This document shows, piece by piece, positions 3,470 to 51,588 of a DNA stretch of 64,000 bases. Position 1 is the first letter of the stretch, and every line of letters begins with the position of its first letter. The DNA comes from Candidatus Zhuqueibacterota bacterium (GTDB taxonomy: Bacteria; Zhuqueibacterota; Zhuqueibacteria; Thermofontimicrobiales; Thermofontimicrobiaceae), in NCBI GenBank assembly GCA_034506395.1, contig JAPDPQ010000001.1:4435-68434 (forward strand), given 5' to 3'. The position numbers were made by a program, and so were the translations under genes. The notes beneath the pieces are model-generated. The model was not told the DNA's origin. It made no database searches and saw only the letters and a list, made by a program, of their open reading frames with translations.

Positions 3470-4876
3470 ATGAGCACCCAGCCGGGAATTAAAATCCGAA
3501 AAATTGCTATCGGCGCCGACCATGCGGGATTTGAGCTCAAGGAGAAGCTCAAAAAATATCTTGCTGATCGAGGGCATCATCTTTTTGATTGTGGAACTTT
3601 CAGCACCGAATCCGTGGATTATCCGAAGATCGCCTTTCAGGTTGCACAATTGGTGAGCAGAGGCGAATATGAATTGGGAATCATGATCGACGGTGCGGGG
3701 ATTGGTTCGGCGATGGCAGCCAATAAGGTCCCCGGTATTCGAGCGGCTCTCTGTTACGATCTTTCGACCGCACGCAATAGTCGCGAGCACAACAACGCCA
3801 ATGTCCTCACTCTGGGGGGTGGGCTGATCGGTTTTGAATTGGCCAAACAGATCGTCGATACCTGGCTGGCATCAGAGTGCACAGTCGATCGACACCTGCG
3901 CCGAGTACAGATGATCCATGACATCGAACAAGGAAAATTCACTGTGAATCAGATAACGATGCCTCCAGGTCCCTCATCTGGGTTGGCAATTTCCGAGGAA
4001 GACGTTAAGAAAATCGTTTCGAGAGTCCAAACTTTATTACAGCAGCAGATGGGAACTGGTGCGATGTGGACATCCGCTAGTTGTCAAAATCCCACATGCA
4101 ATTCGTGCGGCCAATGTGCGAATAAGGCCCCTGATGCCGTTCGTCAATTTATTTCCATTGGTGCTGCGCGCATCTCTAATGCTCCAGGTGGCATCGGTGC
4201 CCCGCAGGACATCGCCAAATTTATTGACCACACGCTGCTCAAGCCAGAAGCTACGATTTCGGATATCGAACGGGTTTGTCAGGAGGCAGTGAAATATCAA
4301 TTTGCAGCGGTGTGTATTAATCCCTGCTATGTGAAATTGGCGCATGAATTGACACGTGGATCCAATGTAAAAGTTTGTAGCGTGGTTGGGTTTCCGCTCG
4401 GGGCAAGCATCACCGAGATTAAAGCCCTGGAGGCTCGGCGAGCGATTCGCGACGGGGCGAAGGAGATCGATATGGTAATCAACATCGGTGCACTCAAAAG
4501 CGACAATGATGAATTGGTGTTTCGGGACATCCGGACTGTGGTGGATGCTTGTGTGGATGGAAGCGCAATCTGCAAGGTTATCATTGAAGCAGCGCTCTTG
4601 ACCGATGAAGAGAAAGTGAGGGCGTGCGAGCTGGCAAAGCGGGCGCGAGCCCATTATGTGAAAACGTCGACGGGATTCGGCCCCGGCGGTGCGACTGCGC
4701 ATGACGTCGCGCTGATGCGACAGGTGGTGAGCGGCACACGAATGGGCGTGAAGGCTGCGGGCGGCATCCGATCGCTGGCAGACGCACAAAAGATGATCGA
4801 AGCGGGGGCCACTCGGATCGGCGCCAGCGCTGGCGTGAAAATCGTCCAAGAAGCAGCAAAGGTGGCAAATCCCTGA
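3470..4876 (+). CDS. Bifunctional fusion: ribose-5-phosphate isomerase B (RpiB/LacAB) N-terminal domain + deoxyribose-phosphate aldolase (DeoC/DERA) C-terminal domain, with a Cys-rich linker
   Basis: N-terminus [17 protein letters not shown]...[28 protein letters not shown] (RpiB). C-terminus [12 protein letters not shown]...[10 protein letters not shown]...VKTSTGFG...AGGIRS (DeoC, with the Schiff-base Lys region). The linker holds [20 protein letters not shown] and [12 protein letters not shown]. Confidence 0.85.
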
Positions 4877-5063: not shown

Positions 5064-5693
5064 GTGGTTGACCTACGCGCTTATGTCTTTTTGGACAATC
5101 TTCAGCCGCAATACGCCGCCTTTTTGGGCACGGTGGCACAAGGGTTCCTGCCAATCGCCCACATGGCGTCGCTTTATGTCGAGATCTCCCCAGGGATCGA
5201 AATCAATCGTATCACGGATATCGCTTTGAAATCGACTCGGGTAACGCCGGGGATGCAAATTGTGGAACGCCTTTATGGTTTGCTTGAGATCCATTCTGAG
5301 TCTCAGGCGGACGTTCGGCAGGCTGGTCAGGCGATTTTGGACGCGTTGGGTTTAAAGGAAGAAGATCGCTGGAAGCCGAAGATTTACTCCAGCCAGGTGA
5401 TCCGACGAATTGATGACCATCAGACGCAATTGATTAATCGCATGCGCCACGGCAACATGATCATTCCGGGCCAGACATTGTATGTGATGGAAGTTGCCCC
5501 GGCAGCTTATGCCGCACTGGCAGCGAACGAAGCGGAAAAGGCCGCCGAAATTAATATCCTAGAGGTTCGAGCTTTTGGCAGTTTTGGACGCGTTTATCTG
5601 GGAGGAGAGGAACGCGATATCGACGTGGGGTGGCGCGCGGCTGTTCATGCCATTGAAAGCGTCACTGGCAAAATGTTTGAAGGAGCGTCTTAG
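5064..5693 (+). CDS. BMC shell protein, BMC-T with tandem circularly permuted BMC domains (PduB/EutL-like)
   Basis: Two repeats each end in a G-x-x-x-DV-x-x-A motif ([20 protein letters not shown] and [21 protein letters not shown]). GTG start follows an AAGGAGAG SD. Sits in the shell-gene cluster. Confidence 0.65.
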
Positions 5694-5916
5694 GTCGCTA
5701 TCCCTCTGCGCCAAAATATTTTATTGCTGATGCGTATCAACCCCATGGGCTTAAAGTTCTTCATCTTTCCATAATGAAAAAATAACGGACGCTTTTAAGG
5801 GAAGCTCATAAATTTTCCAACTTTTTTTCAGACTTCTGTGCAATGAGCCGATATCGATCAATCTCCTGTCACTGTTGAATAGGTAGGAGTCTATTTTATT
5901 TTAACAAGTCACAACT

Positions 5917-5945
5917 CAGGCATGCCCGCATTAACAGGCATGCCC
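5917..5945 (+). promoter_or_regulatory. Two copies of CAGGCATGCCC (each containing the palindrome GGCATGCC) 18 bp apart, upstream of the BMC-H gene; candidate operator
   Basis: Direct reading: 5917-5927 and 5935-5945. The pair is flanked by TTAACAAGT at ~5902 and ~5992. TTGACA at 6015 and an AGGAGG SD at 6050 follow. Confidence 0.35.
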
Positions 5946-6062
5946 CGATTTTGCAATTTATTTGAATTTTATGAAAGTCTCAGTTATTTAGTTAACAAGT
6001 TTAGGACAGCGCATTGACAAATTGGTTTAGAACATTTTACTGGTACTCAGGAGGAATGAAGC

Positions 6063-6383
6063 ATGGCCGAAGCTTTAGGAATGATTGAATGTCGTAGTTT
6101 TCCAGCAATGGTGGAAGCTGCAGATGCCATGGTTAAGGCTGCCAAGGTTGAGTTGGTCAGTTACGAGAAAACTGGGGGAGGATACGTCACTGCGATCATC
6201 CGTGGGGATGTTGCTGCGGTAAAGGCCGCTTGCGAAGCTGGACAAGCTGGTGCCGCCAAAGTGGGTGAGGTCGTTGCCGTGCATATTATCGCTCGGCCGC
6301 ACAGCAATGTGGACCTGGTATTGCCATTGGGCAGAAAGGAACAGGTAGCCGCAGAGCTGAAGAAAACCAAGCGCGATGAATAA
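6063..6383 (+). CDS. BMC shell protein BMC-H (PduA/EutM/CcmK family hexamer)
   Basis: [77 protein letters not shown] is the canonical Pfam00936 sequence. Confidence 0.95.
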
Positions 6384-6612
6384 TCAATAAAGGGCTGGAT
6401 AGAAGCCGCAAGTCAACGACGCTGCAAGTTGCTCTTGTTTGCTTTTAAAAATTTTTCAGCCAAGAGGCAAAACTATTTTTCCTTGCGTTAATAGCGGCTG
6501 AGAAAGAATTGAACTTCTGAAATAGCCCCTGATTCTGAATAGTTGGTAGCGAATAAGTTTGAAGCCATAAATTTGAGACAAATTGCTGCCAGAGTTATGA
6601 GCAGGAAAAGCT

Positions 6613-6912
6613 ATGGTATTAGCCAAAGTAATTGGGACCGTGGTCGCCACGCGAAAAGAAAAGAGCATGGAAGGGCTCAAATTCCTGCTTTTGCGACAGG
6701 TCGACCTCGATGGCAACGAGATTGGGGGTCATATCGTTGCTGCTGATGCTGTTGGTGCAGGTCTGGGCGAAATGGTGCTTTATGCCACTGGTAGCTCGGC
6801 TCGACAAACCGTAATGACTGATAAGCGGCCTTGCGATGCGGTCATTATGGCCATTGTGGATAACTGGGAAGTGAACGGACAGATCAAATACAAAAAAGGA
6901 CAACATGATTGA
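6613..6912 (+). CDS. BMC vertex protein BMC-P (EutN/PduN/CcmL family), copy 1
   Basis: [31 protein letters not shown]...[25 protein letters not shown] is a typical pentamer protein. 99 aa. Confidence 0.9.
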
Positions 6913-7027
6913 CCTGCTCCGCCGCCTAATATTTTCCATTAGCCGTGCAATGACAGATTGTTGAGATTTAAACTCCAATGAAACCGCAGGCTGATTTGGC
7001 ATTTAATGAAATAACAGGTAGCGCAAA

Positions 7028-7594
7028 TTGGATCGACCTTTTTTAATCGGCAAAAAGATCTATCTCCGACCAGTAGAGCCTGAGGATGCGGCATTTCTCG
7101 CTCGGGGGGAAAATCACCCAGCGGTGCGCGAGGCGTTATTTCTGGCATTCCCCGTGAGTATGGGAACTGAGCTGGAGAAGATCGAGCAATTCATCAAATC
7201 CAAAGAAGCAATTGTGCTGATCATTGTAGACCAGCAGACGAATCAACCAGTCGGCCAGACCGCATTCTTTCGCATCGATTTCGTCAGCCGAGCGGCCGTT
7301 TTTTATCTGGCAATCCTCGATCCGAGCCATTGGTCGAAGGGGTATGGCTCGGAGGCCACACAACTCATGGTTGATTACGCATTCGAGACGCTCAATCTCA
7401 ATCGCATCCAGCTTCATGTCTGCGCCGAAAATACCCCTGCCATTCGGATTTATGAGCGCGCTGGATTCAAAAAAGAGGGAGTTTTACGACAGGCTATGTT
7501 TCGCAACGGGGCTTATGTGGATTTCTGGGTGATGGGCATCTTGCGGAGCGATTGGTCGGTGCGATCTCAAAATAGCCAAGTCTTTTCGGCATAA
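7028..7594 (+). CDS. GNAT family N-acetyltransferase (RimJ/RimL-like), embedded in the BMC operon
   Basis: IYLRPVEPEDAAFLA...QPVGQTAFF...WSKGYGSEATQLMVDYAFETLNLNRIQLHVCAENTPAIRIYERAGFKKEG is the acetyl-CoA-binding motif A region. Apparent TTG start. Confidence 0.75.
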   Translation: MDRPFLIGKKIYLRPVEPEDAAFLARGENHPAVREALFLAFPVSMGTELEKIEQFIKSKEAIVLIIVDQQTNQPVGQTAFFRIDFVSRAAVFYLAILDPSHWSKGYGSEATQLMVDYAFETLNLNRIQLHVCAENTPAIRIYERAGFKKEGVLRQAMFRNGAYVDFWVMGILRSDWSVRSQNSQVFSA

Positions 7595-7741
7595 GCCAAT
7601 CAAATCCAGCCATAAATTCATCGACACAATAGGTATTTTTCGCCGGTGGTTGAATGATCTTAATAGTTGATTAGAGACTTTCGTTCACATACAACAATTA
7701 TTTGGTTTATCATGCGATCACTTTAACGCTGGAGCGAACCC

Positions 7742-9187
7742 TTGTCTTTCCTTGGTGAAAATCAGATCGAAACGATCGCCCAAAAAATTGTGGAGATCAT
7801 TATTGGCAAGAGCTCAGTGCCGGACGCGGGTATAAGGAGTAGCTCGGTCTTTCGTTCAGGCTGGTTGGGGATTTTCCCCACCATCGATGAAGCCGTGACC
7901 GCGACTTCGATCGCTCAGCGGCAATTGACCAGCATGACGCTCCGAAAGCGAGATGAGATCATCGCCAGTATCCGAGCCATGATGCTGGAACATGCGCGGG
8001 AGTTGGCCGAATTCGCCGTTGCAGAGACAGGGTTGGGCCGCGTCGAAGATAAGATTGCCAAAAATAAATTGGTGAGCGAGAAGACGCCTGGGACAGAAGA
8101 TCTCTATCCGATTGCCCGATCTGGAGACCACGGGCTAAGCTTGTTCGAGCCAGCGCCTTATGGCGTTATTGGCGCCATCACGCCAATTACCAACCCCACT
8201 TCTACGATCATCTGCAACACGATCGGAATGGTTGCAGCGGGCAACGGGGTGGTTTTCAACGTTCATCCTGGGGCAAAAAACACCTCAATCCAAAATATCC
8301 ATTTAATAAACCAGGCTATTATCCAAGCTGGTGGGCCCGTGAATTTGGTCAGTGGCATAACCGAGCCAACAATTGCAACGGCACAGCAATTGATGCGCCA
8401 TCCTGGGATACGAATTTTGGTCATCACAGGCGGAGGTGCTGTGGTCCGAGAAGCGATGAACAGTGGCAAGCGAGCCATTTGCGCTGGGCCCGGCAATCCA
8501 CCTGTGGTAGTTGATGAAACCGCTGATTTGGAGCGCGCTGGCGAGTTCATCGTGAAAGGCGCATCGTTCGACAATAACATCATCTGTGTGGATGAAAAGG
8601 AACTCATCGTGGTTGAGGCAGTGGCAGACCAATTGCTCAGGATCATGCAGAACAAAGGGGCGATCTTGCTAAAACCCCAGCTTCTCCCCCAGCTCGAGCA
8701 ATTATTGTTCGAGAAAACGAACGGGCCGGCCAAGCCAGGGATGATAAATAAAAGCTTGATCGGCAAAAATGCCAATTTGATCCTCTCGAAATTGGGGCTA
8801 TCGGTCGATGATCGGATTCGATTGGCCGTCATCGAGGTCGATCGCACCCATCCGCTGGTCTGGACCGAACAGATGATGCCAATTTTGCCGATGGTGCGGG
8901 TGGCGAATGCGGATGAGGCAATCGATTTGGCAAAACAGGTAGAAGGTGGAAATTATCATACTGCGGTTATGTATTCCCGAAATCTGGACAATCTCAGCCG
9001 GATGGCCCGGGAAATTAACACGACAATTTTTGTGAAAAACGGTCCCGCCTATGCTGGATTAGGATTTGGCGGCGAGGGATACACTTCTTTTTCTATCGCC
9101 AGCCCAACGGGAGAGGGCTTAACAGGTCCGCGCAGTTTCTCAAGAGAGCGGCGTTGCGTGTTGGTAGATCATTTTCGGATCGTTTAA
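7742..9187 (+). CDS. CoA-acylating aldehyde dehydrogenase (PduP/EutE family) with an N-terminal encapsulation-peptide-like helix
   Basis: Full-length similarity to EutE/PduP, with the catalytic Cys context NNIICVDEKELIV. N-terminal QIETIAQKIVEIIIG amphipathic helix, then a Ser/Gly-rich linker before the ALDH core. TTG start with a GGAGCG SD. Confidence 0.9.
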   Translation: MSFLGENQIETIAQKIVEIIIGKSSVPDAGIRSSSVFRSGWLGIFPTIDEAVTATSIAQRQLTSMTLRKRDEIIASIRAMMLEHARELAEFAVAETGLGRVEDKIAKNKLVSEKTPGTEDLYPIARSGDHGLSLFEPAPYGVIGAITPITNPTSTIICNTIGMVAAGNGVVFNVHPGAKNTSIQNIHLINQAIIQAGGPVNLVSGITEPTIATAQQLMRHPGIRILVITGGGAVVREAMNSGKRAICAGPGNPPVVVDETADLERAGEFIVKGASFDNNIICVDEKELIVVEAVADQLLRIMQNKGAILLKPQLLPQLEQLLFEKTNGPAKPGMINKSLIGKNANLILSKLGLSVDDRIRLAVIEVDRTHPLVWTEQMMPILPMVRVANADEAIDLAKQVEGGNYHTAVMYSRNLDNLSRMAREINTTIFVKNGPAYAGLGFGGEGYTSFSIASPTGEGLTGPRSFSRERRCVLVDHFRIV

Positions 9188-9188
9188 T

Positions 9189-9812
9189 ATGAAACTATAC
9201 CCTGCAATTGCGCTGATCGAGTTTAGTAGCATTGCCACCGGAGTAATTGCTGGCGATGCGATGATCAAAAGAGCGCCGATTTCCATGTTAAAGGCTGGCA
9301 CGGTCAGCCGAGGAAAATATCTGGTGATGATTGCTGGTAGCACAGCAGCGGTCGAGGAATCTTATCGGGCTGGTCTAAGCGTCGGCGAAGCTGCGGTCAT
9401 CGATAAGGTTTTTCTGCCTGATGTGCATCCGCAGGTGCTCGACGCTATCCTTGGAGCAAGAAAAAAAATCAGCTCCGAGGCACTCGGGCTGATCGAAACC
9501 GCATCTATTGCCGCGACGATCGCCGCCGCTGATGCTGGCATCAAAGGGGCGATGGTCGATATCATCGAAATTCGGCTGGGCGACGCATTGGGCGGCAAGG
9601 CATTTGTGATGATGAACGGAACAGTCCACGACGTCACCGCTGCAGTTACCATTGGGCTGAAAGCGATCTCCAATGAAGCGCTTTGGCGCAATCATATCAT
9701 CATCCCATCGTTGCATCACGAAATGGCCCGTCAGATCGACCGTTCGAGCCGATTTGCCCTGGTAGAATATCAAAAATTAGCTGGAGACGAGAGCGAACAT
9801 GTTACTGGGTAA
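9189..9812 (+). CDS. BMC shell protein BMC-T, tandem canonical BMC domains (PduT-like)
   Basis: Two BMC domains (AIALIEFSSIATGVIAGDAMIKRA... and EALGLIETASIAATIAAADAGIKGA...). ATG lies 1 nt after the AldDH stop. No Fe-S-ligand Cys seen in domain 1. Confidence 0.85.
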   Translation: MKLYPAIALIEFSSIATGVIAGDAMIKRAPISMLKAGTVSRGKYLVMIAGSTAAVEESYRAGLSVGEAAVIDKVFLPDVHPQVLDAILGARKKISSEALGLIETASIAATIAAADAGIKGAMVDIIEIRLGDALGGKAFVMMNGTVHDVTAAVTIGLKAISNEALWRNHIIIPSLHHEMARQIDRSSRFALVEYQKLAGDESEHVTG

Positions 9813-10089
9813 AGTGATCGGCACTGTTACGCCCTGCGTGGTTTACCCCGGACTCGAAGGCGTTCCGCTTCTGCTGGTTCAGCCGCTGAGTAAAAACTCC
9901 AAAGCGGTCGGCAAGCCCATTGTCGCCTGCGATGCCACCCGAATGGCTGGTCCAGGAGAACTGATCTATTACGAGGGCGGCCGCGAGGCAGCGCTGGCAT
10001 TAGATCCCTGGTTCGTCCCAGTGGATCACACCATCATTGGCATTGTGGATGGCGTCCATCTAATCGATGAAAGCTCTCAGTCCGAGTGA
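9799..10089 (+). CDS. BMC vertex protein BMC-P, copy 2
   Basis: MLLGKVIGTVTPCVVYPGLEGVPLLLVQPL...IVACDATRMAGPGELIYYEGG. Overlaps the BMC-T stop by 14 nt. Confidence 0.85.
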   Translation: MLLGKVIGTVTPCVVYPGLEGVPLLLVQPLSKNSKAVGKPIVACDATRMAGPGELIYYEGGREAALALDPWFVPVDHTIIGIVDGVHLIDESSQSE

Positions 10090-10319
10090 AATTCAACTCT
10101 TTCAACCTCGCAGACAGCAAGTTCCTGCTGCAAAATGTCAAAAAGAGGCTATATTTTCACGCCGGCGAAGGCAGGTATCTCAACATTCGGTTGACCTAAC
10201 GATCAGTTTAGAAGGAGGTTCCTGTGCGCAAGCCAGCGGACAGAAATGAGAGGGCTCAACCATAGCGCTTTTTGCAACAGAAACTCGCTAGCTAATTTGT
10301 TAGAATTGGAGAAAAAGTT

Positions 10320-10592
10320 GTGATTATCGGCAAAGTCGCTGGAGAAATCTACTCCACGATCAACCACAGTTTCTATGATCAAAAAAAACTGCTGATCGTG
10401 GACAAATTGGACCTAACTGGAACGCCCACAGGCGACTATTTGATCGCAGTAGATTCCGTCGATGCTGGGCTCGGTGAAACGGTATTGGTCATTGATGAAG
10501 GCAATTCGGCCCGACAGGTAGTAAGCGATCCCAATGCGCCAATCCGCTCAATCATTATCGGGATCATCGATGCCGTGCGCATTGAGAGGTGA
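10320..10592 (+). CDS. BMC vertex protein BMC-P, copy 3 (GTG start)
   Basis: IIGKVAGEIYSTINHSFYDQKKLLIVDKLD...LIAVDSVDAGLGETVLVIDEGNSAR. 90 aa. Confidence 0.8.
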   Translation: MIIGKVAGEIYSTINHSFYDQKKLLIVDKLDLTGTPTGDYLIAVDSVDAGLGETVLVIDEGNSARQVVSDPNAPIRSIIIGIIDAVRIER

Positions 10593-10840: not shown

Positions 10841-11527
10841 ATGGCGAATGAATGGCAATTGCGACGGGAGATCGTCGCGATTGGCAAAAAGGCTTACGAA
10901 CGCGGGCTGGTGACGGCCACAGATGGGAATATCAGCGTGCGAGTCATGGGAGATCGTTTTCTGATCACACCGAGCGGCAGTTGCCTCGGAGAATTGGCAC
11001 CCGAACAATTGGTTTATGTCGATTTTGAAGGCAAGACATTATCTGGCGGTAAGCCAACTGGAGAGCTGGCCATGCACCTGGCTGCTTATCGAGAGCGGCC
11101 AGACATCCATGCCGTCTTGCATGCACACCCACCAATTACCACGGGCTTTACCATCGCTGGCGAATCACTGGCGCAATGCGTCATCCCCGAGGTTGTGGTG
11201 ATCTTCGGGACCATCCCTACTACGGAATATGCCACTATTTCAACTGAAGAGGGTGCCAAAGTCATTCGGGAATTGATCCGCGACCATGATGCTTTGATAT
11301 TGGATCGGCATGGGACAATTACAGTGGGAAAAACCCTCATCGACGCATATCGCAAACTCGAGAAGGTCGAATATGCCGCCCAGGTCACCCTGGTTGCCAA
11401 ACAATTGGGCAAAGTGAAAACCTTATCGCGTGAACAAATTCAAAAATTGGAAGCCGTCAGGCAAAAATATGGCTATCAGGGCCGAAAATCGCTATGCGAG
11501 GCATGTGGCCTCTGCAATATTTCATGA
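10841..11527 (+). CDS. Class II aldolase/adducin-family protein (FucA/RhaD/AraD/MtnB-like) with a C-terminal extension
   Basis: ATDGNISVRVMGDRFLITPSG...KPTGELAMHLAAYRERPDIHAVLHAHPP...LDRHGTITVG includes the Zn-binding His triad. The C-terminus adds SREQIQKLEAVRQKY...CEACGLC. Confidence 0.85.
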   Translation: MANEWQLRREIVAIGKKAYERGLVTATDGNISVRVMGDRFLITPSGSCLGELAPEQLVYVDFEGKTLSGGKPTGELAMHLAAYRERPDIHAVLHAHPPITTGFTIAGESLAQCVIPEVVVIFGTIPTTEYATISTEEGAKVIRELIRDHDALILDRHGTITVGKTLIDAYRKLEKVEYAAQVTLVAKQLGKVKTLSREQIQKLEAVRQKYGYQGRKSLCEACGLCNIS

Positions 11528-11694: not shown

Positions 11695-12588
11695 ATGAAG
11701 GAGAACAAATTTTTGACTGCAAATCAGCAAGAACCGATCCAATCCACATACGACTGTATCCCCTGTGCTATCGGGAGCCTGATCACTCTATTTAAAAAAG
11801 GACTGGTTTCAGAAAGGGATCAGGAAATCGCCATGCGAGCATTATTGCGTTATCTCAGCACCATTGATTTCCATCAATCCCCTCCCCAAATCGGTCAACA
11901 GATGCAACGGATCATTCGACACGTGCTCAATAATCCTGATCCGTATTTAGAAATCAAACAGCAATTCAATCGCTTGCTTCTCGATCATTACGTTGAATTA
12001 AAAGCATGGGTGGACCAGGCGGCAGATCCATTTCAGATGGCATTGCGATTGTCCATCGCTGGAAACGTGATCGATTTCGGTCCGAATCAACGCTTTGATG
12101 TCCACCAAACATTGGAACGGGCAAAGACTATTGTCCTGGCGATCGATGATTCAGAGCCTTTGCGCCAGGCCATCTCGAAAGCAACGCTACTTCTCTATTT
12201 GGGAGATAATGCTGGCGAAATCGTGTTGGATCGTATTTTCCTGGAAACGATTAACCATCCCAATGTCTATTTTGCTGTTCGCAGTGCGCCCATCATCAAT
12301 GACGCATTGCTGGAAGACGCAATCATGGTAGGAATCGACAAAATTGCCCATGTCATCACCAATGGGGATGATGCGCCTGGGACAATCTTAGAGAACACCT
12401 CAGCCCAATTTAAGACAATTTTTGACCAAGCGGATCTGATCATTTCAAAAGGCCAGGGCAATTATGAGGGTCTTAGCTGCGTTGATAAAAATATCTTCTT
12501 TTTGCTAATGACCAAATGCGAGCATGTCGCTAATCATCTTGGAGTAAAAAAAGGTGATTTTGTGGTGAAACAAGGACAAGGTTGTTGA
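11695..12588 (+). CDS. DUF89 / ARMT1-like damage-control sugar-phosphate phosphatase family protein
   Basis: 297 aa with characteristic segments SIAGNVIDFG, LGDNAGEIVLD and KGQGNYEGL. Confidence 0.65.
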   Translation: MKENKFLTANQQEPIQSTYDCIPCAIGSLITLFKKGLVSERDQEIAMRALLRYLSTIDFHQSPPQIGQQMQRIIRHVLNNPDPYLEIKQQFNRLLLDHYVELKAWVDQAADPFQMALRLSIAGNVIDFGPNQRFDVHQTLERAKTIVLAIDDSEPLRQAISKATLLLYLGDNAGEIVLDRIFLETINHPNVYFAVRSAPIINDALLEDAIMVGIDKIAHVITNGDDAPGTILENTSAQFKTIFDQADLIISKGQGNYEGLSCVDKNIFFLLMTKCEHVANHLGVKKGDFVVKQGQGC

Positions 12589-36933: not shown

Positions 36934-38229
36934 TTAGTGAATGGAGCCCAATATCAATCTTGGGACCTGACATGGTGCTTCATCAATTTCAATTGCCGAT
37001 CGTAAAGCGTGTTCAATTTGCTCAGCATTCATCACTTTTGAGTGATAGATTTCAGCCAAAGGCTCACCGCGTTCCACGCGATCACCGACTTTATGGCACA
37101 AAACGATCCCCGCGGTGGGATCAATGGGATCTCCAATTTTTGCCCGACCAGCGCCGAGTTCCATGGACAACAAGCCGATCTTCAGCGCATTTATCTCGTG
37201 AACATAACCTGATTTGGTGCTGAGCACGGTTTCATGATATTGGCTGAAGGGATATCGAGCAGGATTTTCAACGACTGAAATATCACCTCCCTGGGCAGTT
37301 ACCATCTCAATAAATTTATTATAGGCAGCTCCATTGGCTAATAAAAATTGCAATTGATCAGAATGATGAATTGGCTTTCCCGCCAATCGCAGCATCTCTG
37401 CCGTGAGCGCCAAAGTAATTTCAACTAAGTCATTTGGGCCACCACCATGCAATGTATCAATTGCTTCTTTAACCTCCAGCCAATTCCCAACCGCATAACC
37501 TAAAGGCTGATCCATGGCCGTCATCATGGCCGTAGTGGGCAGGCCGAAGCTTTTTGCAATCGAGATGAATGTCTCGGCTAATTGGTTCGCTCGGTCAAAT
37601 GAGCTAAAAAATGCTCCACGACCAGTTTTAACATCCAACACCAGGGCCTTTGCACCTTCTGCGATCTTTTTGCTCAATATGCTGGCAACAACTAAAGGGA
37701 TCGATGGCACAGTTCCTGTGCGATCGCGTAACGCATAAATCTTTTTGTCCGCCGGGACAATCTCATCGGTTTGCCCAATCATGGCAAGGCCGATTTTTTC
37801 AACTTGTTGAACGAACTCTGTCAAGCTCAACTGGGTTCGAAAGCCGGGGATCGATTCTAATTTGTCCAATGTCCCACCAGAATGGCCCAATCCACGACCA
37901 GACATCATGGGAACTGCTACCCCTGCCGCGGCGGCCAATGGGGCCAAGACCAATGACACCTTATCACCGACCCCTCCAGTGCTGTGCTTATCGACAGGCA
38001 TCCGATCTAAATGGCTGAAGTCTACCGTCCGGCCCGATTGAACCATGAGCTTGGTCAATGCTTGAGTCTCTTCTATGCTCATGCCCTGAAAATAAATGGC
38101 CATCAATAAAGCGGCCATTTGGTAGTCTGGGACCAAACCAGCGACATAGCCATCGATTATTGATTTCAACTCTGCCTCTGAAAGGTGAGATCCGTCTCGC
38201 TTTTTCACAATCAATTGTTCAATATTCAT
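36934..38229 (-). CDS. deoA: Thymidine / pyrimidine-nucleoside phosphorylase
   Basis: IIVKKRDG..LS..E..SII..GYV...KHSTGGVGDKVSLVLAPLAAA...MMSGRGLGHSGGTLDKLESIPGF. Confidence 0.9.
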   Translation of the reverse strand: MNIEQLIVKKRDGSHLSEAELKSIIDGYVAGLVPDYQMAALLMAIYFQGMSIEETQALTKLMVQSGRTVDFSHLDRMPVDKHSTGGVGDKVSLVLAPLAAAAGVAVPMMSGRGLGHSGGTLDKLESIPGFRTQLSLTEFVQQVEKIGLAMIGQTDEIVPADKKIYALRDRTGTVPSIPLVVASILSKKIAEGAKALVLDVKTGRGAFFSSFDRANQLAETFISIAKSFGLPTTAMMTAMDQPLGYAVGNWLEVKEAIDTLHGGGPNDLVEITLALTAEMLRLAGKPIHHSDQLQFLLANGAAYNKFIEMVTAQGGDISVVENPARYPFSQYHETVLSTKSGYVHEINALKIGLLSMELGAGRAKIGDPIDPTAGIVLCHKVGDRVERGEPLAEIYHSKVMNAEQIEHALRSAIEIDEAPCQVPRLILGSIH

Positions 38230-38319
38230 CGTTCCTCTTCCTTTTTCCAAAAAACAAAGAAGCAATCAAACAACGATTGCTTCTTTAATTTTGTTTTCAT
38301 TCTATAGCTCTATTTCGTG

Positions 38320-39681
38320 TCAACTAAGAGCGCTCAATTGCTTAATCTCCTCAACAAATTGATAAGCCAGTGCATTGGCTTGGTCCATGGTTTTCGCCTC
38401 AGCGTAGATTCGGATAATTGGCTCTGTATTGGACGGTCGAATTTGCACCCAGCGATCGGGCCATAGGATCTTCAAACCGTCCGTCAGATCGAGACGCTGG
38501 TTATTGTATTTATTGGTCATCGTCTTCAATAACTCGCCAATATTCACATCGGCCAATTCAATGCGACTCTTAGCGATCACATATTGCGGCAAAGATCGTT
38601 GCAATTCGCCAATAGAGCCCCCAAATTCAGCCAATTGCTGCAAAGTTAAGGCAATTCCCACTGGTGCATCTCGGCCTAAATGAAGCTCCGGCAAGATAAC
38701 TCCTCCGTTTCCTTCCCCACCGATCACCGCCTTCACTTCCTTCATCTTTTTTGCGACATGAATTTCCCCAACTTTGGTTCGAAACACCTCAGCGCCATAT
38801 TTGGCAGCAATTTCGTCGATCGCCTGGGTGACCGAGACATTGACCGCCACTGGCCCGTGTCTTTTTTGAAGCACATAATTCACAGCTAACGCCAAAGTAT
38901 ACTCCTCGCCCAGGGGATTGCCGTGCTCATCGACAATGGCGAGCCGATCGACATCCGGATCCACTGCAAAGCCCAGATCGGCACCAGTGCGCTTCACTGT
39001 CTGGCATAATTCTTTGAGATTCTCTGGCAATGGTTCTGGTGGATGCGAAAATAACCCAGTTGGATCCTCATTGATAAATATCACATCGCATCCCAGGCGT
39101 TGCAATAATTGGGGTAAAATGGTCCCACCTGCTCCATTCACACAATCTACGACAACCCTAAATTTCCGGGCAGCTATCTTCTCTGGTGAAATCAAATCTA
39201 ATCGCAAAATGGCATCGATATGATGCCGAATAGCGGTGTTATTAAGTTCGATCTTTCCAATTTGATCCCAAGGGACAAAGCGAAATTCTGCTTCGTCGGC
39301 AAGCTGAATGACTTTCTTGCCTTGTATCTCATCGAGGAACATGCCAGAGGCATCGATCAATTTCAACGCGTTCCATTCGATTGGATTATGGCTGGCTGTG
39401 ATGGCAATGCCTCCACGCGCCTTAAAATGCTCCACCGCCAATTCTACCGTTGGCGTTGGGCAAATGCCGATATCAATTACATCGCATCCCATGGCCGTCA
39501 GGCCAGAGAGCACCGCATGCTTGACCATGGGTCCAGTGATTCGGGAGTCTCTTCCTACCACCACCTTTCCTCCACCCAAATAAGCCCCGAATGCCTGGGC
39601 GTATCGGAGGACCACCTCTGGGGTTAACCCATCTCCAACCACGCCTCTTATTCCCGAGATGCTAACCATTAATTTCGCCAC
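38320..39681 (-). CDS. Alpha-D-phosphohexomutase family protein (PGM/PMM/GlmM-like); candidate phosphopentomutase by context
   Basis: SGIRGVVG...GIAITASHNP (phosphoserine loop)...FAVDPDVDRLAIVDEHGN (metal loop)...GGEGNGG. Confidence 0.8.
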   Translation of the reverse strand: MAKLMVSISGIRGVVGDGLTPEVVLRYAQAFGAYLGGGKVVVGRDSRITGPMVKHAVLSGLTAMGCDVIDIGICPTPTVELAVEHFKARGGIAITASHNPIEWNALKLIDASGMFLDEIQGKKVIQLADEAEFRFVPWDQIGKIELNNTAIRHHIDAILRLDLISPEKIAARKFRVVVDCVNGAGGTILPQLLQRLGCDVIFINEDPTGLFSHPPEPLPENLKELCQTVKRTGADLGFAVDPDVDRLAIVDEHGNPLGEEYTLALAVNYVLQKRHGPVAVNVSVTQAIDEIAAKYGAEVFRTKVGEIHVAKKMKEVKAVIGGEGNGGVILPELHLGRDAPVGIALTLQQLAEFGGSIGELQRSLPQYVIAKSRIELADVNIGELLKTMTNKYNNQRLDLTDGLKILWPDRWVQIRPSNTEPIIRIYAEAKTMDQANALAYQFVEEIKQLSALS

Positions 39682-49224: not shown

Positions 49225-51588
49225 GTGACGCCGAGAGTTGAGAAATTAAGAAGACAAAGCCTGGAGACTCCGACATCGATTACAGCAGAGCGAGCGGTTT
49301 TAATCACCGAATTCTATCGATCGCATGATGCATTGACTATCTCAGCGCCGATGCGCCGGGCATTGGCGTTCAAATATCTGATGGAACATAAAGCCGTTTG
49401 CATCAACGATGGTGAGTTGATCGTTGGCGAGCGCGGACCGGCTCCTCGGTCAACCCCAACATTCCCAGAGATCTGCTGCCATACGATTGAGGAGCTTGAG
49501 ATCCTCAATTCGAGGGAAAAAGTGAGCTACGCGGTCTCTGAAGAAACCAAGCGGATTTATCGCGAGCAAATTATTCCCTATTGGAAGGGAAAGACTATTC
49601 GGGAAAAGATCTTTGAGGAGATGACCGATGAGTGGAAAGCGGCCTATCGCGCTGGGATTTTTACCGAGTTCATGGAGCAACGCGCTCCTGGTCATACAGC
49701 ATTAGATGACAAAATTTACTTGAAAGGCTTTTTGGGATTTAAGAAAGAGATCGAAGAGCAACTGAGTCGATTGGATTATCTAAACGATCCGGAAGCGTAC
49801 GAGAAGCAGGAACAGCTCAAAGCCATGGCCATTGCTGCGGATGCCATCATTCGCTATGCCGAACGACATGCCGAACTCGCCCAACAAATGGCCCGCAAAG
49901 AATCTGATCCAGTCAGGAAACGCGAACTTGAGCAAATTGCAGAAATCTGCGCCTATGTCCCAGCCAATCCGCCACGAACCTTCTGGGAGGCGCTGCAGGC
50001 GTACTGGTTCACCCATGTTGGGGTGATTTCGGAATTAAACACCTGGGACGCCATCTGCCCTGGCCGATTCGATCAGCATTTTTATCCGTTTTACAAAAAG
50101 GACATTGAGTCTGGTCTATTGTCTCGAGAGGCCGCTAAGGAGCTTCTGCAATGCTTCTGGATCAAATTCAACAATCAGCCCGCCCCTCCAAAGGTGGGCG
50201 TCACTGCTCAGGAGAGCGGGACTTATAACGATTTTGCGCTGATTTCGCTGGCCGGACAAACGCGCGATGGAAAAGACGGTGCCAACGAGCTCTCCTATTT
50301 ATGCCTCGATGTATTGGAGGAATTGCGGCTGGTGCAGCCCCACTGTTGCGTTCAATTGAGCCAGCAAAATCCCGATCGCCTGCTGAAGCGTGCGCTCGAG
50401 GTCAATCGCACTGGTCTGGGTCAACCCTCGATCTTCAATCATGACGCCGTGGTCCAGGAGCTTATTCGCCAGGGCAAATCTATCGAAGACGCGAGGACCG
50501 GCGGCACCAGTGGGTGTGTGGAGACCGGGGCATTGGGCAAGGAAAATTACAATCTCACCGGCTACTTTAATATGATGAAAGTGCTGGAAATCACGCTCCA
50601 CAATGGCGTCGATCCCCGTACTGGAGAAAAGATCGGGATCGAAACCGGGGATCCCACTCGATTTGAAAATTTTGAGCAATTATTCGAGGCTTATAAAAGA
50701 CAGCTTCGGCACTTCATCGACATTAAGATCCGAGGCAATAACATCATCGAAAAAATCTATGCGCAATATATGCCCACGCCGTTTCTTTCATTGTTGATTA
50801 GCGATTGCATTCAACGTGGTAAAGATTATCACAATGGCGGAGCGCGCTACAATACAAGCTACATCCAGGGCGTTGGTTTGGGCAGCATTACGGACGCCAT
50901 GAGCTCATTGAAATATCATGTTTACGATCATCGCAAGCTCACCATGGAGCAGATGCTCAGCGTCCTTAAAGATAATTATGAGGGCCATGAAAGGATTCGG
51001 CAGATGATGCGCTATCAGACACCCAAGTACGGCAATGACGATGATTATGCCGATGAGATTATGAAGCGGGTATTTGAAGCCTACTTTGAAGCGATCGATG
51101 GCAGGAAAAATATGAAAGGAGGAACTTATCGCATCAACTTGCTCCCGACGACGGTTCATGTCTACTTTGGCTCAGTGGTGGGAGCAACTCCCGATGGTCG
51201 AAAGGCAGGAGACGTACTCTCTGAAGGGGTGTCTCCAGTTCAGGGGGCGGATCGAAACGGTCCAACAGCAGTGATTAAATCGGTAGCCAAAATCGATCAT
51301 TTACGCACGGGCGGCACTTTGCTGAATCAGAAATTTTCACCTTCGCTACTGAGCAGCGATAACGGACTCGCTGGACTCGCCCATTTGGTACGATCTTATT
51401 TTAAAATGAACGGACATCACATCCAATTTAATGTGGTGACCGCTGCTACGCTCCGAGCGGCTCAGCAGCACCCAGAGAAGTATCGCGACCTGATCGTTCG
51501 GGTGGCAGGATATAGCGATTATTTCTGCAACTTGAATAAAGGCCTGCAGGATGAGATCATCGCCAGGACCGAACATCAAAGCTTTTAG
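49225..51588 (+). CDS. Glycyl radical enzyme, PFL2 / dehydratase-eliminase type (Cys-x-Glu active site)
   Basis: 787 aa. C-terminal glycyl radical motif RVAGYSDYF. Active-site loop GGTSGCVETG. GTG start with an AGGAGCG SD. Confidence 0.9.
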   Translation: MTPRVEKLRRQSLETPTSITAERAVLITEFYRSHDALTISAPMRRALAFKYLMEHKAVCINDGELIVGERGPAPRSTPTFPEICCHTIEELEILNSREKVSYAVSEETKRIYREQIIPYWKGKTIREKIFEEMTDEWKAAYRAGIFTEFMEQRAPGHTALDDKIYLKGFLGFKKEIEEQLSRLDYLNDPEAYEKQEQLKAMAIAADAIIRYAERHAELAQQMARKESDPVRKRELEQIAEICAYVPANPPRTFWEALQAYWFTHVGVISELNTWDAICPGRFDQHFYPFYKKDIESGLLSREAAKELLQCFWIKFNNQPAPPKVGVTAQESGTYNDFALISLAGQTRDGKDGANELSYLCLDVLEELRLVQPHCCVQLSQQNPDRLLKRALEVNRTGLGQPSIFNHDAVVQELIRQGKSIEDARTGGTSGCVETGALGKENYNLTGYFNMMKVLEITLHNGVDPRTGEKIGIETGDPTRFENFEQLFEAYKRQLRHFIDIKIRGNNIIEKIYAQYMPTPFLSLLISDCIQRGKDYHNGGARYNTSYIQGVGLGSITDAMSSLKYHVYDHRKLTMEQMLSVLKDNYEGHERIRQMMRYQTPKYGNDDDYADEIMKRVFEAYFEAIDGRKNMKGGTYRINLLPTTVHVYFGSVVGATPDGRKAGDVLSEGVSPVQGADRNGPTAVIKSVAKIDHLRTGGTLLNQKFSPSLLSSDNGLAGLAHLVRSYFKMNGHHIQFNVVTAATLRAAQQHPEKYRDLIVRVAGYSDYFCNLNKGLQDEIIARTEHQSF

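Follow-up and report, generated by a model that had tools for sequence, protein, structure and literature searches.

A conserved cysteine triad beyond the fold of a class II aldolase encoded in a sugar-phosphate-utilisation microcompartment locus

Sugar-phosphate-utilisation (SPU) microcompartments rank among the most widespread types of bacterial microcompartment (BMC), with >280 loci in 26 phyla according to PMC8217296, and the organisation of their cargo is barely characterised. The SPU3 type is marked by a chimera of RPI and DERA (PMC11585597). The same study describes the extension of DERA as a helix of ~30 amino acids and two low-confidence β-strands, treats the linker helix of RpiB–DERA as a putative encapsulation peptide (EP), and predicts a C-terminal EP for the SPU5 aldolases; full-length DERA proved insoluble in E. 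coli, and the extension was therefore deleted there. Aussignargues 2015 gives a Cys content of 5.5% for the EP linkers of aldolases, uncommented and the highest of the cargo classes in the available part of the table, and the linker is called devoid of composition or sequence conservation in that paper. Here, we describe the cysteine motifs of two aldolases, a class II (FucA-type) enzyme and an RpiB–DERA fusion, that are encoded in a 64,000-nucleotide stretch of contig JAPDPQ010000001.1 from a Candidatus Zhuqueibacterota bacterium (hereafter, the window). The window locus is of the SPU3 type because it encodes the chimera that serves as the marker in the definition of PMC11585597.

PMC11585597, searched by terms, mentions neither cysteines nor metals in the DERA or aldolase extensions, and Sutter 2021 mentions no cysteines. 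A wider search found no literature linking EPs, aldolases, and iron–sulfur (Fe–S) or Cys motifs, and the motif did not appear in term searches of PMC11585597, PMC8217296, and PMC4594438. As far as the literature searched shows, a Cys motif in the extensions by which aldolases of SPU-type and related BMCs are tethered as cargo is undescribed, which agrees with the initial annotation of the window, where a shared targeting or metal-bridging module was said to be unfamiliar from described BMC systems.

The initial annotation had read the end of the class II aldolase (11426–11527) as an EP-like helix beyond the expected end of the FucA/AraD-type fold, followed by a Cys cluster. The sequence, the coordinates, and the cysteines were confirmed, but the helix does not lie beyond the fold. 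With a probability of about 0.55, we read this segment from its sequence as two unrelated elements, a fold helix and a CxxCGxC add-on, the latter likely forming a small metal site with thiolate ligands between the enzyme and its tether. The features of the gene are as follows.

10841–11527, + strand: class II (FucA-type) aldolase gene, 228 amino acids (open reading frame [ORF]; PF00596)
11426–11473, + strand: ordinary C-terminal helix of the fold, residues 196–211, LSREQIQKLEAVRQKY-G, ending at Tyr210–Gly211 (structure alignment, AlphaFold2 [AF2], Foldseek)
11474–11494, + strand: variable spacer YQGRKSL, residues 212–218, between the fold and the triad (homologue comparison)
11495–11515, + strand: CEACGLC triad (CxxCGxC), residues 219–225, the true extension (codons read directly; conservation)
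11516–11527, + strand: residues 226–228 (NIS) and the stop codon, the triad being followed by neither a linker nor an EP (ORF reading)

The last fold helix and the cysteine triad of the aldolase

The aldolase gene closes the shell and cargo block of the microcompartment operon. Its product matched PF00596 (Aldolase_II) at residues 9–183 with an E value of 8e-50 (model positions 1–182 of 183), and it reached none of the NCBIfam equivalog cutoffs (best score, 143 bits against a cutoff of 250). The catalytic-type residues E75, H94, H96, and H157 are invariant in a 40-sequence alignment (A1). We take their counterparts in E. coli FucA to be the catalytic Glu E73 and the three metal-ligand histidines H92, H94, and H155; in the PDB sequence alignment, the positions of the window aldolase are offset by ~+1 to +2 relative to FucA.

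The protein ends in ...LSREQIQKLEAVRQKYGYQGRKSLCEACGLCNIS, and base 11426 opens the codon of L196, from which the helix LSREQIQKLEAVRQKYG (residues 196–211) starts. In a phmmer search against PDB sequences, FucA entries matched with E values of 1e-21 to 5e-28, and the alignments with full-length non-BMC enzymes ran through residue 211–213. S. pneumoniae FucA (4c24) ends in ...LPDEEMELMAEKFKTYG plus three residues at the chain end, and B. thuringiensis DrdA (6btd) ends in ...LPEDEMENLAKKFEGYGQQ plus nine residues; residues 197–210 of the aldolase align residue for residue with the C-terminal helices of these two non-BMC proteins. No solved FucA-family chain in the PDB sequence search aligns past residue 213 of the window aldolase, and no Pfam or NCBIfam model matches beyond this residue or covers the tail. 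The AF2 model has an overall predicted local distance difference test score (pLDDT) of 92.7 and places helix 197–210 within the fold at pLDDT >90, with no flexible linker before it, and Foldseek aligned 209–214 columns with E. coli FucA at a template-modelling (TM) score of 0.90. On the basis of the alignment with the FucA and DrdA C termini, the AF2 and Foldseek results, and the lack of any model past residue 213, residues 196–211 constitute the helix with which FucA-type folds normally end and not an EP, contrary to the earlier reading. The true extension comprises only ~15 residues (214–228). By our own offset reading of the alignment, Tyr210–Gly211 corresponds to Tyr209–Gly of E. coli FucA, and we take Tyr209, from mutagenesis work, to be part of a mobile C-terminal lid. 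The FucA mutant entries Y113F/Y209F and R212A were among the structure and sequence matches.

The helical properties discriminate less clearly. The hydrophobic moment did not separate the core helix of the aldolase from true EPs. Mean hydrophobicity separated them only partly: the aldolase helix was the most polar of those compared (−0.46), and the EPs of the aldehyde dehydrogenase (AldDH) and of the aldolase homologue P0065 had values of +0.15 to +0.19, but the DERA linker helix was also negative (−0.23). BMC encapsulation peptides are amphipathic helices of ~15–20 amino acids that non-BMC homologues lack and that a flexible, poorly conserved linker sets apart from the enzyme core. A function of the aldolase helix as a BMC encapsulation peptide was rejected because the same helix occurs in the non-BMC homologues 4c24 and 6btd, and its annotation or engineering as such a peptide should be avoided.

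The cysteines follow the fold after a spacer whose composition varies across homologues, with a roughly constant length. The TGY codons of the triad are at 11495–97 (C219), 11504–06 (C222), and 11513–15 (C225). Among the 46 translated proteins of the window (16,229 amino acids, 0.99% Cys), CxxCxxC occurs exactly twice, in the aldolase tail and in the RpiB–DERA linker, against 0.016 occurrences expected by chance, and the motifs are therefore non-random. CxxCxxC is present at the aligned position in 81 of the 120 closest aldolase homologues (82/121 with the window protein counted). When these homologues, the window protein, and 80 genome loci were combined into a set of 201 sequences, 115 carried the triad, either at or near the C terminus (57) or followed by a longer extension (58), and 86 had no triad. 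The numbers of tail cysteines in this set were three in 121 sequences, two in 14, one in 36, and zero in 23, a distribution close to all-or-none. The 40 sequences of a second alignment (A2), drawn from across the triad-bearing clades, all have the three Cys, and nearly all keep the Gly that follows the second one, whereas the neighbouring residues vary. A broader survey searched 1.84 billion cluster representatives, and 146 aligned representatives at 50% identity were analysed. The triad was found in 21 of them, comprising 18 of the 77 long-tailed representatives, most of which end in an EP-like helix by inspection, and 3 of the 69 short-tailed ones, 56 of which have no Cys at all. The AF2 model gives the tail of the window aldolase a pLDDT of 74–82, and the tail is hence not predicted to be disordered. 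Judged by its conservation, CEACGLC is a genuine conserved add-on beyond the fold.

Two further observations concern cysteines in and near the tail. The cluster representative P0333 has two CxxCxxC motifs (CETCGTC ... CATCQAC) ahead of an EP-like helix. Cys179 was considered as a fourth ligand and rejected, as it is also found in the non-BMC enzymes 4c24 and 6btd and in non-triad representatives (nine listed) but in 0/21 triad representatives. At this residue (DNA 11375–11377), the window aldolase has Ala, and 44/45 clade members have Cys, including a 96%-identical homologue; since Cys is common here in non-BMC FucA enzymes, this Cys probably belongs to the protein core and does not serve as a ligand.

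In sister clades, 15–60 extra residues follow the triad and end in an EP-like helix. These longer extensions typically consist of CSxCGTCG[KR], 15–25 Gly/Pro/Glu-rich residues, and an amphipathic helix, e.g., VDEEVVDVVTEEVLKVLEEMGVQW. In the AF2 model of P0065, the core is followed by the triad and linker (225–249) at pLDDT <50 and then by the EP helix (250–266). The order in EP-bearing relatives is thus core, Cys triad, disordered linker, and EP. The genes of the terminal-triad aldolases P0024 (70% identity) and P0002 (92%) and of P0065, with triad and EP, lie in the same order as in the window: RpiB–DeoC, CcmP-like, BMC-H, BMC-P, AldDH, BMC-T, BMC-P, BMC-P, and aldolase. A midpoint-rooted neighbour-joining tree did not resolve whether the window's clade lost the EP or never gained it.

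The cysteine cluster of the RpiB–DERA linker

The second CxxCxxC motif of the window belongs to a larger cluster in the RpiB–DERA fusion. The relevant features, together with the EP of AldDH for comparison, are as follows.

3470–4876, + strand: RpiB–DERA (DeoC) fusion, SPU3-type signature enzyme (PF02502 and PF01791; NCBIfam deoC, 280.9 bits, above cutoff)
3989–4048, + strand: EP-like amphipathic helix, RpiB–DERA residues 174–193 (conserved pattern; hydrophobic moment 0.52)
4082–4117, + strand: four-Cys cluster, residues 205–216, directly before the first DERA helix (C205-x4-C210-x2-C213-x2-C216)
7757–7810, + strand: N-terminal EP of AldDH, ENQIETIAQKIVEIIIGK, with no Cys cluster (ORF reading)

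For this protein, the amphipathic helix (~174–193) followed by a Cys cluster (C205, C210, C213, and C216) was correctly described in the initial annotation. The helix has the pattern LSExDLxRIAxRI, which is conserved in RpiB–DERA homologues. When 120 proteins homologous to the DERA half were compared, 106 had at least four Cys in the stretch that separates the EP-like helix from the first helix of DERA. Their spacing is C-x4-C-x2-C-x2-C in 69 homologues, C-x3-C-x2-C-x2-C in 17, and C-x-CC-x3-C-x3-C or similar in ~20; four homologues have three Cys and two have two. Retention of at least four Cys despite the changes in spacing looks like a conserved ligand count. The remaining eight linkers are without Cys, one of them being N-terminally truncated and seven having LMDGRGVSVEK instead. 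These seven homologues (P0168, P0174, P0189, P0193, P0197, P0212, and P0222) are natural loss-of-cluster variants. A stand-alone DERA (L024) also has the Cys cluster. The RpiB–DERA proteins of Phycisphaerae (L043, L045, L051, and L022; at ~4.0–5.8 kb in each locus) have an extra Cys/Gly-rich insert upstream of the EP helix, e.g., CGCSGGSSGPCACGGHG, and only three Cys of the usual cluster are left in L043 and L045.

RpiB–DERA is arranged as EP helix, short linker, four-Cys cluster, and DERA core, which mirrors the order of core, triad, and EP in the relatives of the class II aldolase. A module shared by the two cargo enzymes, as proposed in the initial annotation, is borne out for the conserved Cys cluster, but the pairing of helix and cysteines is not repeated because the aldolase helix belongs to the fold. 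No Cys cluster was found near the EP of AldDH, either in the window or in the AldDH ORFs with an intact N terminus from related loci. Since AldDHs with an N-terminal EP have no such cluster, the Cys clusters within this cargo set are specific to the two aldolases, where they lie on the core-proximal side of the tether.

A putative thiolate metal site and its alternatives

We propose that each of the two Cys clusters is a small metal site with thiolate ligands, which would fold the segment where the tether joins the enzyme core and fix it in place. The triad is the core-proximal element of the C-terminal extension on microcompartment-associated aldolases of this family; in the window's clade, the triad alone is present. 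Since the aldolase site begins nine residues after the putative lid Tyr, whose lid role we presume from FucA, its metallation or redox state could affect lid mobility; the association of cargo with cargo in the compartment may be affected instead or as well. As for the metal, an Fe–S cluster of the [4Fe–4S] type is our best guess from the motifs, with Zn as the alternative. CxxCxxC is the canonical motif of low-potential [4Fe–4S] clusters (PMC9059760 and PMC3320576), and a 16-mer maquette, KLCEGGCIACGACGGW, with a CIACGAC core assembles a [4Fe–4S] cluster (PMC6374738). The aldolase triad matches the core of this maquette (CxxCGxC). The full maquette spacing, C-x3-C-x2-C-G-x-C, is that of the 17 DERA homologues mentioned above and is near that of the 69 others. 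The presence of a PFL-type glycyl radical enzyme in the host, which hints at an anaerobic lifestyle, was also counted in favour of an Fe–S or other metal site. The metal-bridging or redox function suggested in the initial annotation is plausible in the form of such a putative metal or redox site.

Several observations weigh against this assignment. The aldolase has three Cys only, whereas a ferredoxin-type [4Fe–4S] site takes CxxCxxC and one more Cys ligand, and no conserved fourth ligand was found. Ten peptides from tails and linkers, scanned with Pfam at E values up to 10, gave matches that were sub-threshold and mutually inconsistent (Fer4, GATA, AZUL, and NifU) and did not discriminate between the candidate metals. 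The window aldolase tail matched a GATA Zn finger (E = 0.004) and the DERA linker matched the AZUL Zn domain (E = 0.027), both below threshold; Fer4 gave no match to either of them at E up to 10, and its sub-threshold match (E ~1e-3) was to the tail of a Zixibacteria homologue only. The AF2 confidence of the triad is contradictory, at 74–82 in the window protein versus <50 in P0065. The sole biochemical study removed the whole DERA extension (PMC11585597). The triad is also dispensable in some lineages because tail-less aldolases (L006, L012, and L053) and Phycisphaerae aldolases with a single-Cys tail occur within the same gene order; the cysteines are kept in most BMC-associated homologues and are missing from these two groups. 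Furthermore, both 10-kb flanks of the terminal-triad aldolases L004 and L030 (Zixibacteria) and L007 (Planctomycetota) are free of shell genes, the neighbours being gyrA, an S8 protease, GH113, and a secretin, and five Chloroflexi aldolases with the triad and a clear EP are likewise far from shell genes. Among the 80 genome loci, the triad was not enriched beside shell genes (5 with versus 8 without, for loci with two long flanks). However, EP-bearing aldolases are often in satellite positions; such placement of cargo genes is common in this family, and the local absence of shell genes is therefore uninformative.

The helix and the cysteines might alternatively constitute one targeting module, the aldolase tail being itself the encapsulation signal and the triad replacing a lost EP. 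The window aldolase is without an EP and yet is the last gene of an operon for shell and cargo, and the triad is kept where the EP is absent and enriched in EP-bearing aldolases; in DERA, the true EP adjoins the Cys cluster. We nevertheless regard this explanation as improbable, because the aldolase helix is a part of the fold and is found in non-BMC enzymes, and many EP-bearing aldolases have no triad. The shell offers no partner cysteines, as both the BMC-Ts and the CcmP-like protein are Cys-free, and the tail-less aldolases in the same gene order indicate that the cargo apparently manages without either element, e.g., by piggybacking. The cysteines could also act free of metal, as a thiol/disulfide switch or cross-linker that locks the lid tail or links cargo in an oxidising lumen. 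Such a device would suit cysteines that are close together near a probably mobile tail and are conserved in an all-or-none manner, and the variation in spacing, such as C-x4-C-x-C-x3-C in Hydrogenedentota and C-x-CC-x3-C-x3-C in some DERAs, would be better tolerated by disulfides than by a rigid cluster-binding loop. The fixed x2 spacing and the conserved Gly after the second Cys are, however, typical of turns that bind metal. Three Cys, being an odd number, are also awkward for a pure disulfide device, and the DERA variants hold at least four Cys whatever the spacing, which resembles a ligand count. The hosts are also apparently anaerobes, judging from PFL, and a disulfide function seems unlikely here.

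The triad may instead be a lineage-specific decoration with no BMC role, for example, a terminus stabilised by Zn or a tail that buffers metal for the class II active site, which requires a divalent metal. The triad aldolases that stand beside gyrA and the other genes listed above, with no shell genes within 10 kb, fit this explanation, as does the lack of enrichment beside shell genes (5 with and 8 without in the 80-genome sample, two long flanks). However, five of the eight shell-less loci bear a clear C-terminal EP, and satellite cargo genes are common. The related Cys cluster on DERA is also difficult to reconcile with it, since DERA, as a class I aldolase, works without a metal. Ordinary short-tailed representatives are mostly Cys-free (56/69), and no solved FucA-family chain aligns beyond residue 213 of the window protein. 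We consider a mere decoration to be the least probable of these explanations.

Returning to the thiolate metal site, a more far-reaching version, which is on balance unlikely, would have both aldehyde-releasing enzymes (RpiB–DERA and the class II aldolase) carry minimal, maquette-like Fe–S clusters at the base of the tether. These would either switch cargo condensation or lid closure in response to oxygen or iron status or provide an unconventional electron relay. If so, redox-active or O2-labile clusters would reside on lumenal cargo, in a compartment without PduS/MNdh or an Fe–S-binding BMC-T, and a cargo-borne cofactor module would be new among described BMCs. If the metal site exists, a three- or four-Cys site lacking its cofactor would explain the insolubility of full-length DERA in E. 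coli, a cofactor requirement would be added to the heterologous reconstruction of SPU compartments, and the site would offer a concrete handle on cargo-core assembly or redox sensing.

The SPU3-type locus and comparison with known systems

In addition to the RPI–DERA chimera, the window encodes an acylating AldDH with an N-terminal amphipathic helix (EP), which the SPU3 definition of PMC11585597 also includes, and the SPU3 shell set is complete, with BMC-H, three BMC-P, and BMC-T including a CcmP/CsoS1D-like Tdp. The remaining genes of the operon are as follows.

5064–10592, + strand: shell and core block overall (Pfam, NCBIfam)
5064–5693, + strand: CcmP-like BMC-Tdp (NCBIfam CcmP, 343.7 bits against a cutoff of 340)
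6063–6383, + strand: BMC-H (PF00936)
6613–6912, + strand: BMC-P, first of three (PF03319)
7028–7594, + strand: GNAT (Pfam)
7742–9187, + strand: AldDH (PF00171)
9189–9812, + strand: BMC-Ts, tandem-BMC protein of 207 amino acids (Pfam)
9799–10089, + strand: BMC-P, second of three (PF03319)
10320–10592, + strand: BMC-P, third of three (PF03319)
11695–12588, + strand: ARMT1/DUF89 phosphatase (Pfam, NCBIfam)

The gene order of the window recurs in L081–L085. The GNAT gene, located within the operon between BMC-P and AldDH, is kept in L085, a 92%-identical relative, and is missing from L081 and L083, two loci of the same gene order. The gene of the ARMT1/DUF89 damage-control phosphatase immediately follows that of the aldolase; L085 has this phosphatase too, which may dispose of sugar-phosphate by-products that arise in the compartment. 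In the BMC-Ts protein, SRGK replaces the CPGK of Fe–S-binding BMC-Ts proteins (PMC12747264), and there are zero Cys. The ORFs scanned over the 64 kb included no PduS/MNdh, alcohol dehydrogenase, or phosphotransacylase. With a Cys-free BMC-Ts and none of these enzymes found, a route for the recycling of NAD+ and CoA in the compartment is not evident. Approximately 25 kb from the shell operon, a pyrimidine-nucleoside phosphorylase gene (36934–38265, − strand) adjoins that of a PGM/PMM-family mutase (38320–39681, − strand), and it is plausible that they feed the SPU DERA by converting nucleoside to deoxyribose-1-phosphate and then to deoxyribose-5-phosphate. A PFL-like glycyl radical enzyme is encoded at 49225–51588 (+ strand), which suggests an anaerobic or facultative lifestyle of the host.

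The nearest kin of the window aldolase by structure and sequence are ketose-1-phosphate aldolases, namely FucA, the 5-deoxyribulose-1-phosphate aldolase 6btd, and the ribulose-1-phosphate aldolase of NCBIfam. Such enzymes yield dihydroxyacetone phosphate and an aldehyde, and the role of a second aldehyde-generating signature enzyme therefore fits the window protein better than the formation of fructose-1,6-bisphosphate. The latter role was suggested in PMC11585597. FucA-type aldolases (1FUA, 4C24, DrdA 6BTD, and YgbL 6VOP) share the fold of the window protein up to residue ~210 (Foldseek TM 0.88–0.91 by target length), together with the Glu and three His positions that line up with the metal ligands of FucA, the C-terminal helix, and the Tyr–Gly pair. 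They end 3–9 residues past Tyr–Gly, and none aligns to the Cys triad of the window. The class II aldolases of PVM, GRM5, ACI, HO, and SPU5 microcompartments are of the same enzyme family and carry their EP extensions at the same site (Aussignargues 2015, Sutter 2021, and PMC11585597), but the window protein has neither linker nor EP. The aldolase linker was termed unconserved in the literature, whereas its first seven residues form an invariant CxxCGxC motif here. The N-terminal extension of SPU DERA (PMC11585597) is the same element as the RpiB–DERA linker of the window, and the four cysteines are in the segment after the helix. The order of the elements is EP, four Cys, and core in DERA, and core, three Cys, and EP in the relatives of the class II aldolase.

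Compared with the ferredoxin motif CxxCxxC(xxxCP) and its maquette FdM, the window clusters share the CxxCGxC core, and the C-x3/4-C-x2-C-x2-C of DERA reproduces the ligand spacing of the maquette. The DERA motif continues as xxx-[A/N]-P, resembling CxxxCP of ferredoxin minus the last Cys. Unlike in ferredoxins, there is no ferredoxin fold around the window motifs, the aldolase has three Cys, and Fer4 models match neither of the window's peptides. Among metabolosome proteins, the tail of PduK has a putative Fe–S motif, and the pore cluster of BMC-Ts/PduT (CPGK), together with PduS/MNdh, likewise represents cysteine-ligated clusters. In SPU and archaeal AMC loci with MNdh, the Fe–S centres serve electron export (PMC12747264). 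These known Fe–S centres of BMCs are located on shell proteins or on a flavoprotein, whereas the cysteines of the window are located on two aldolases.

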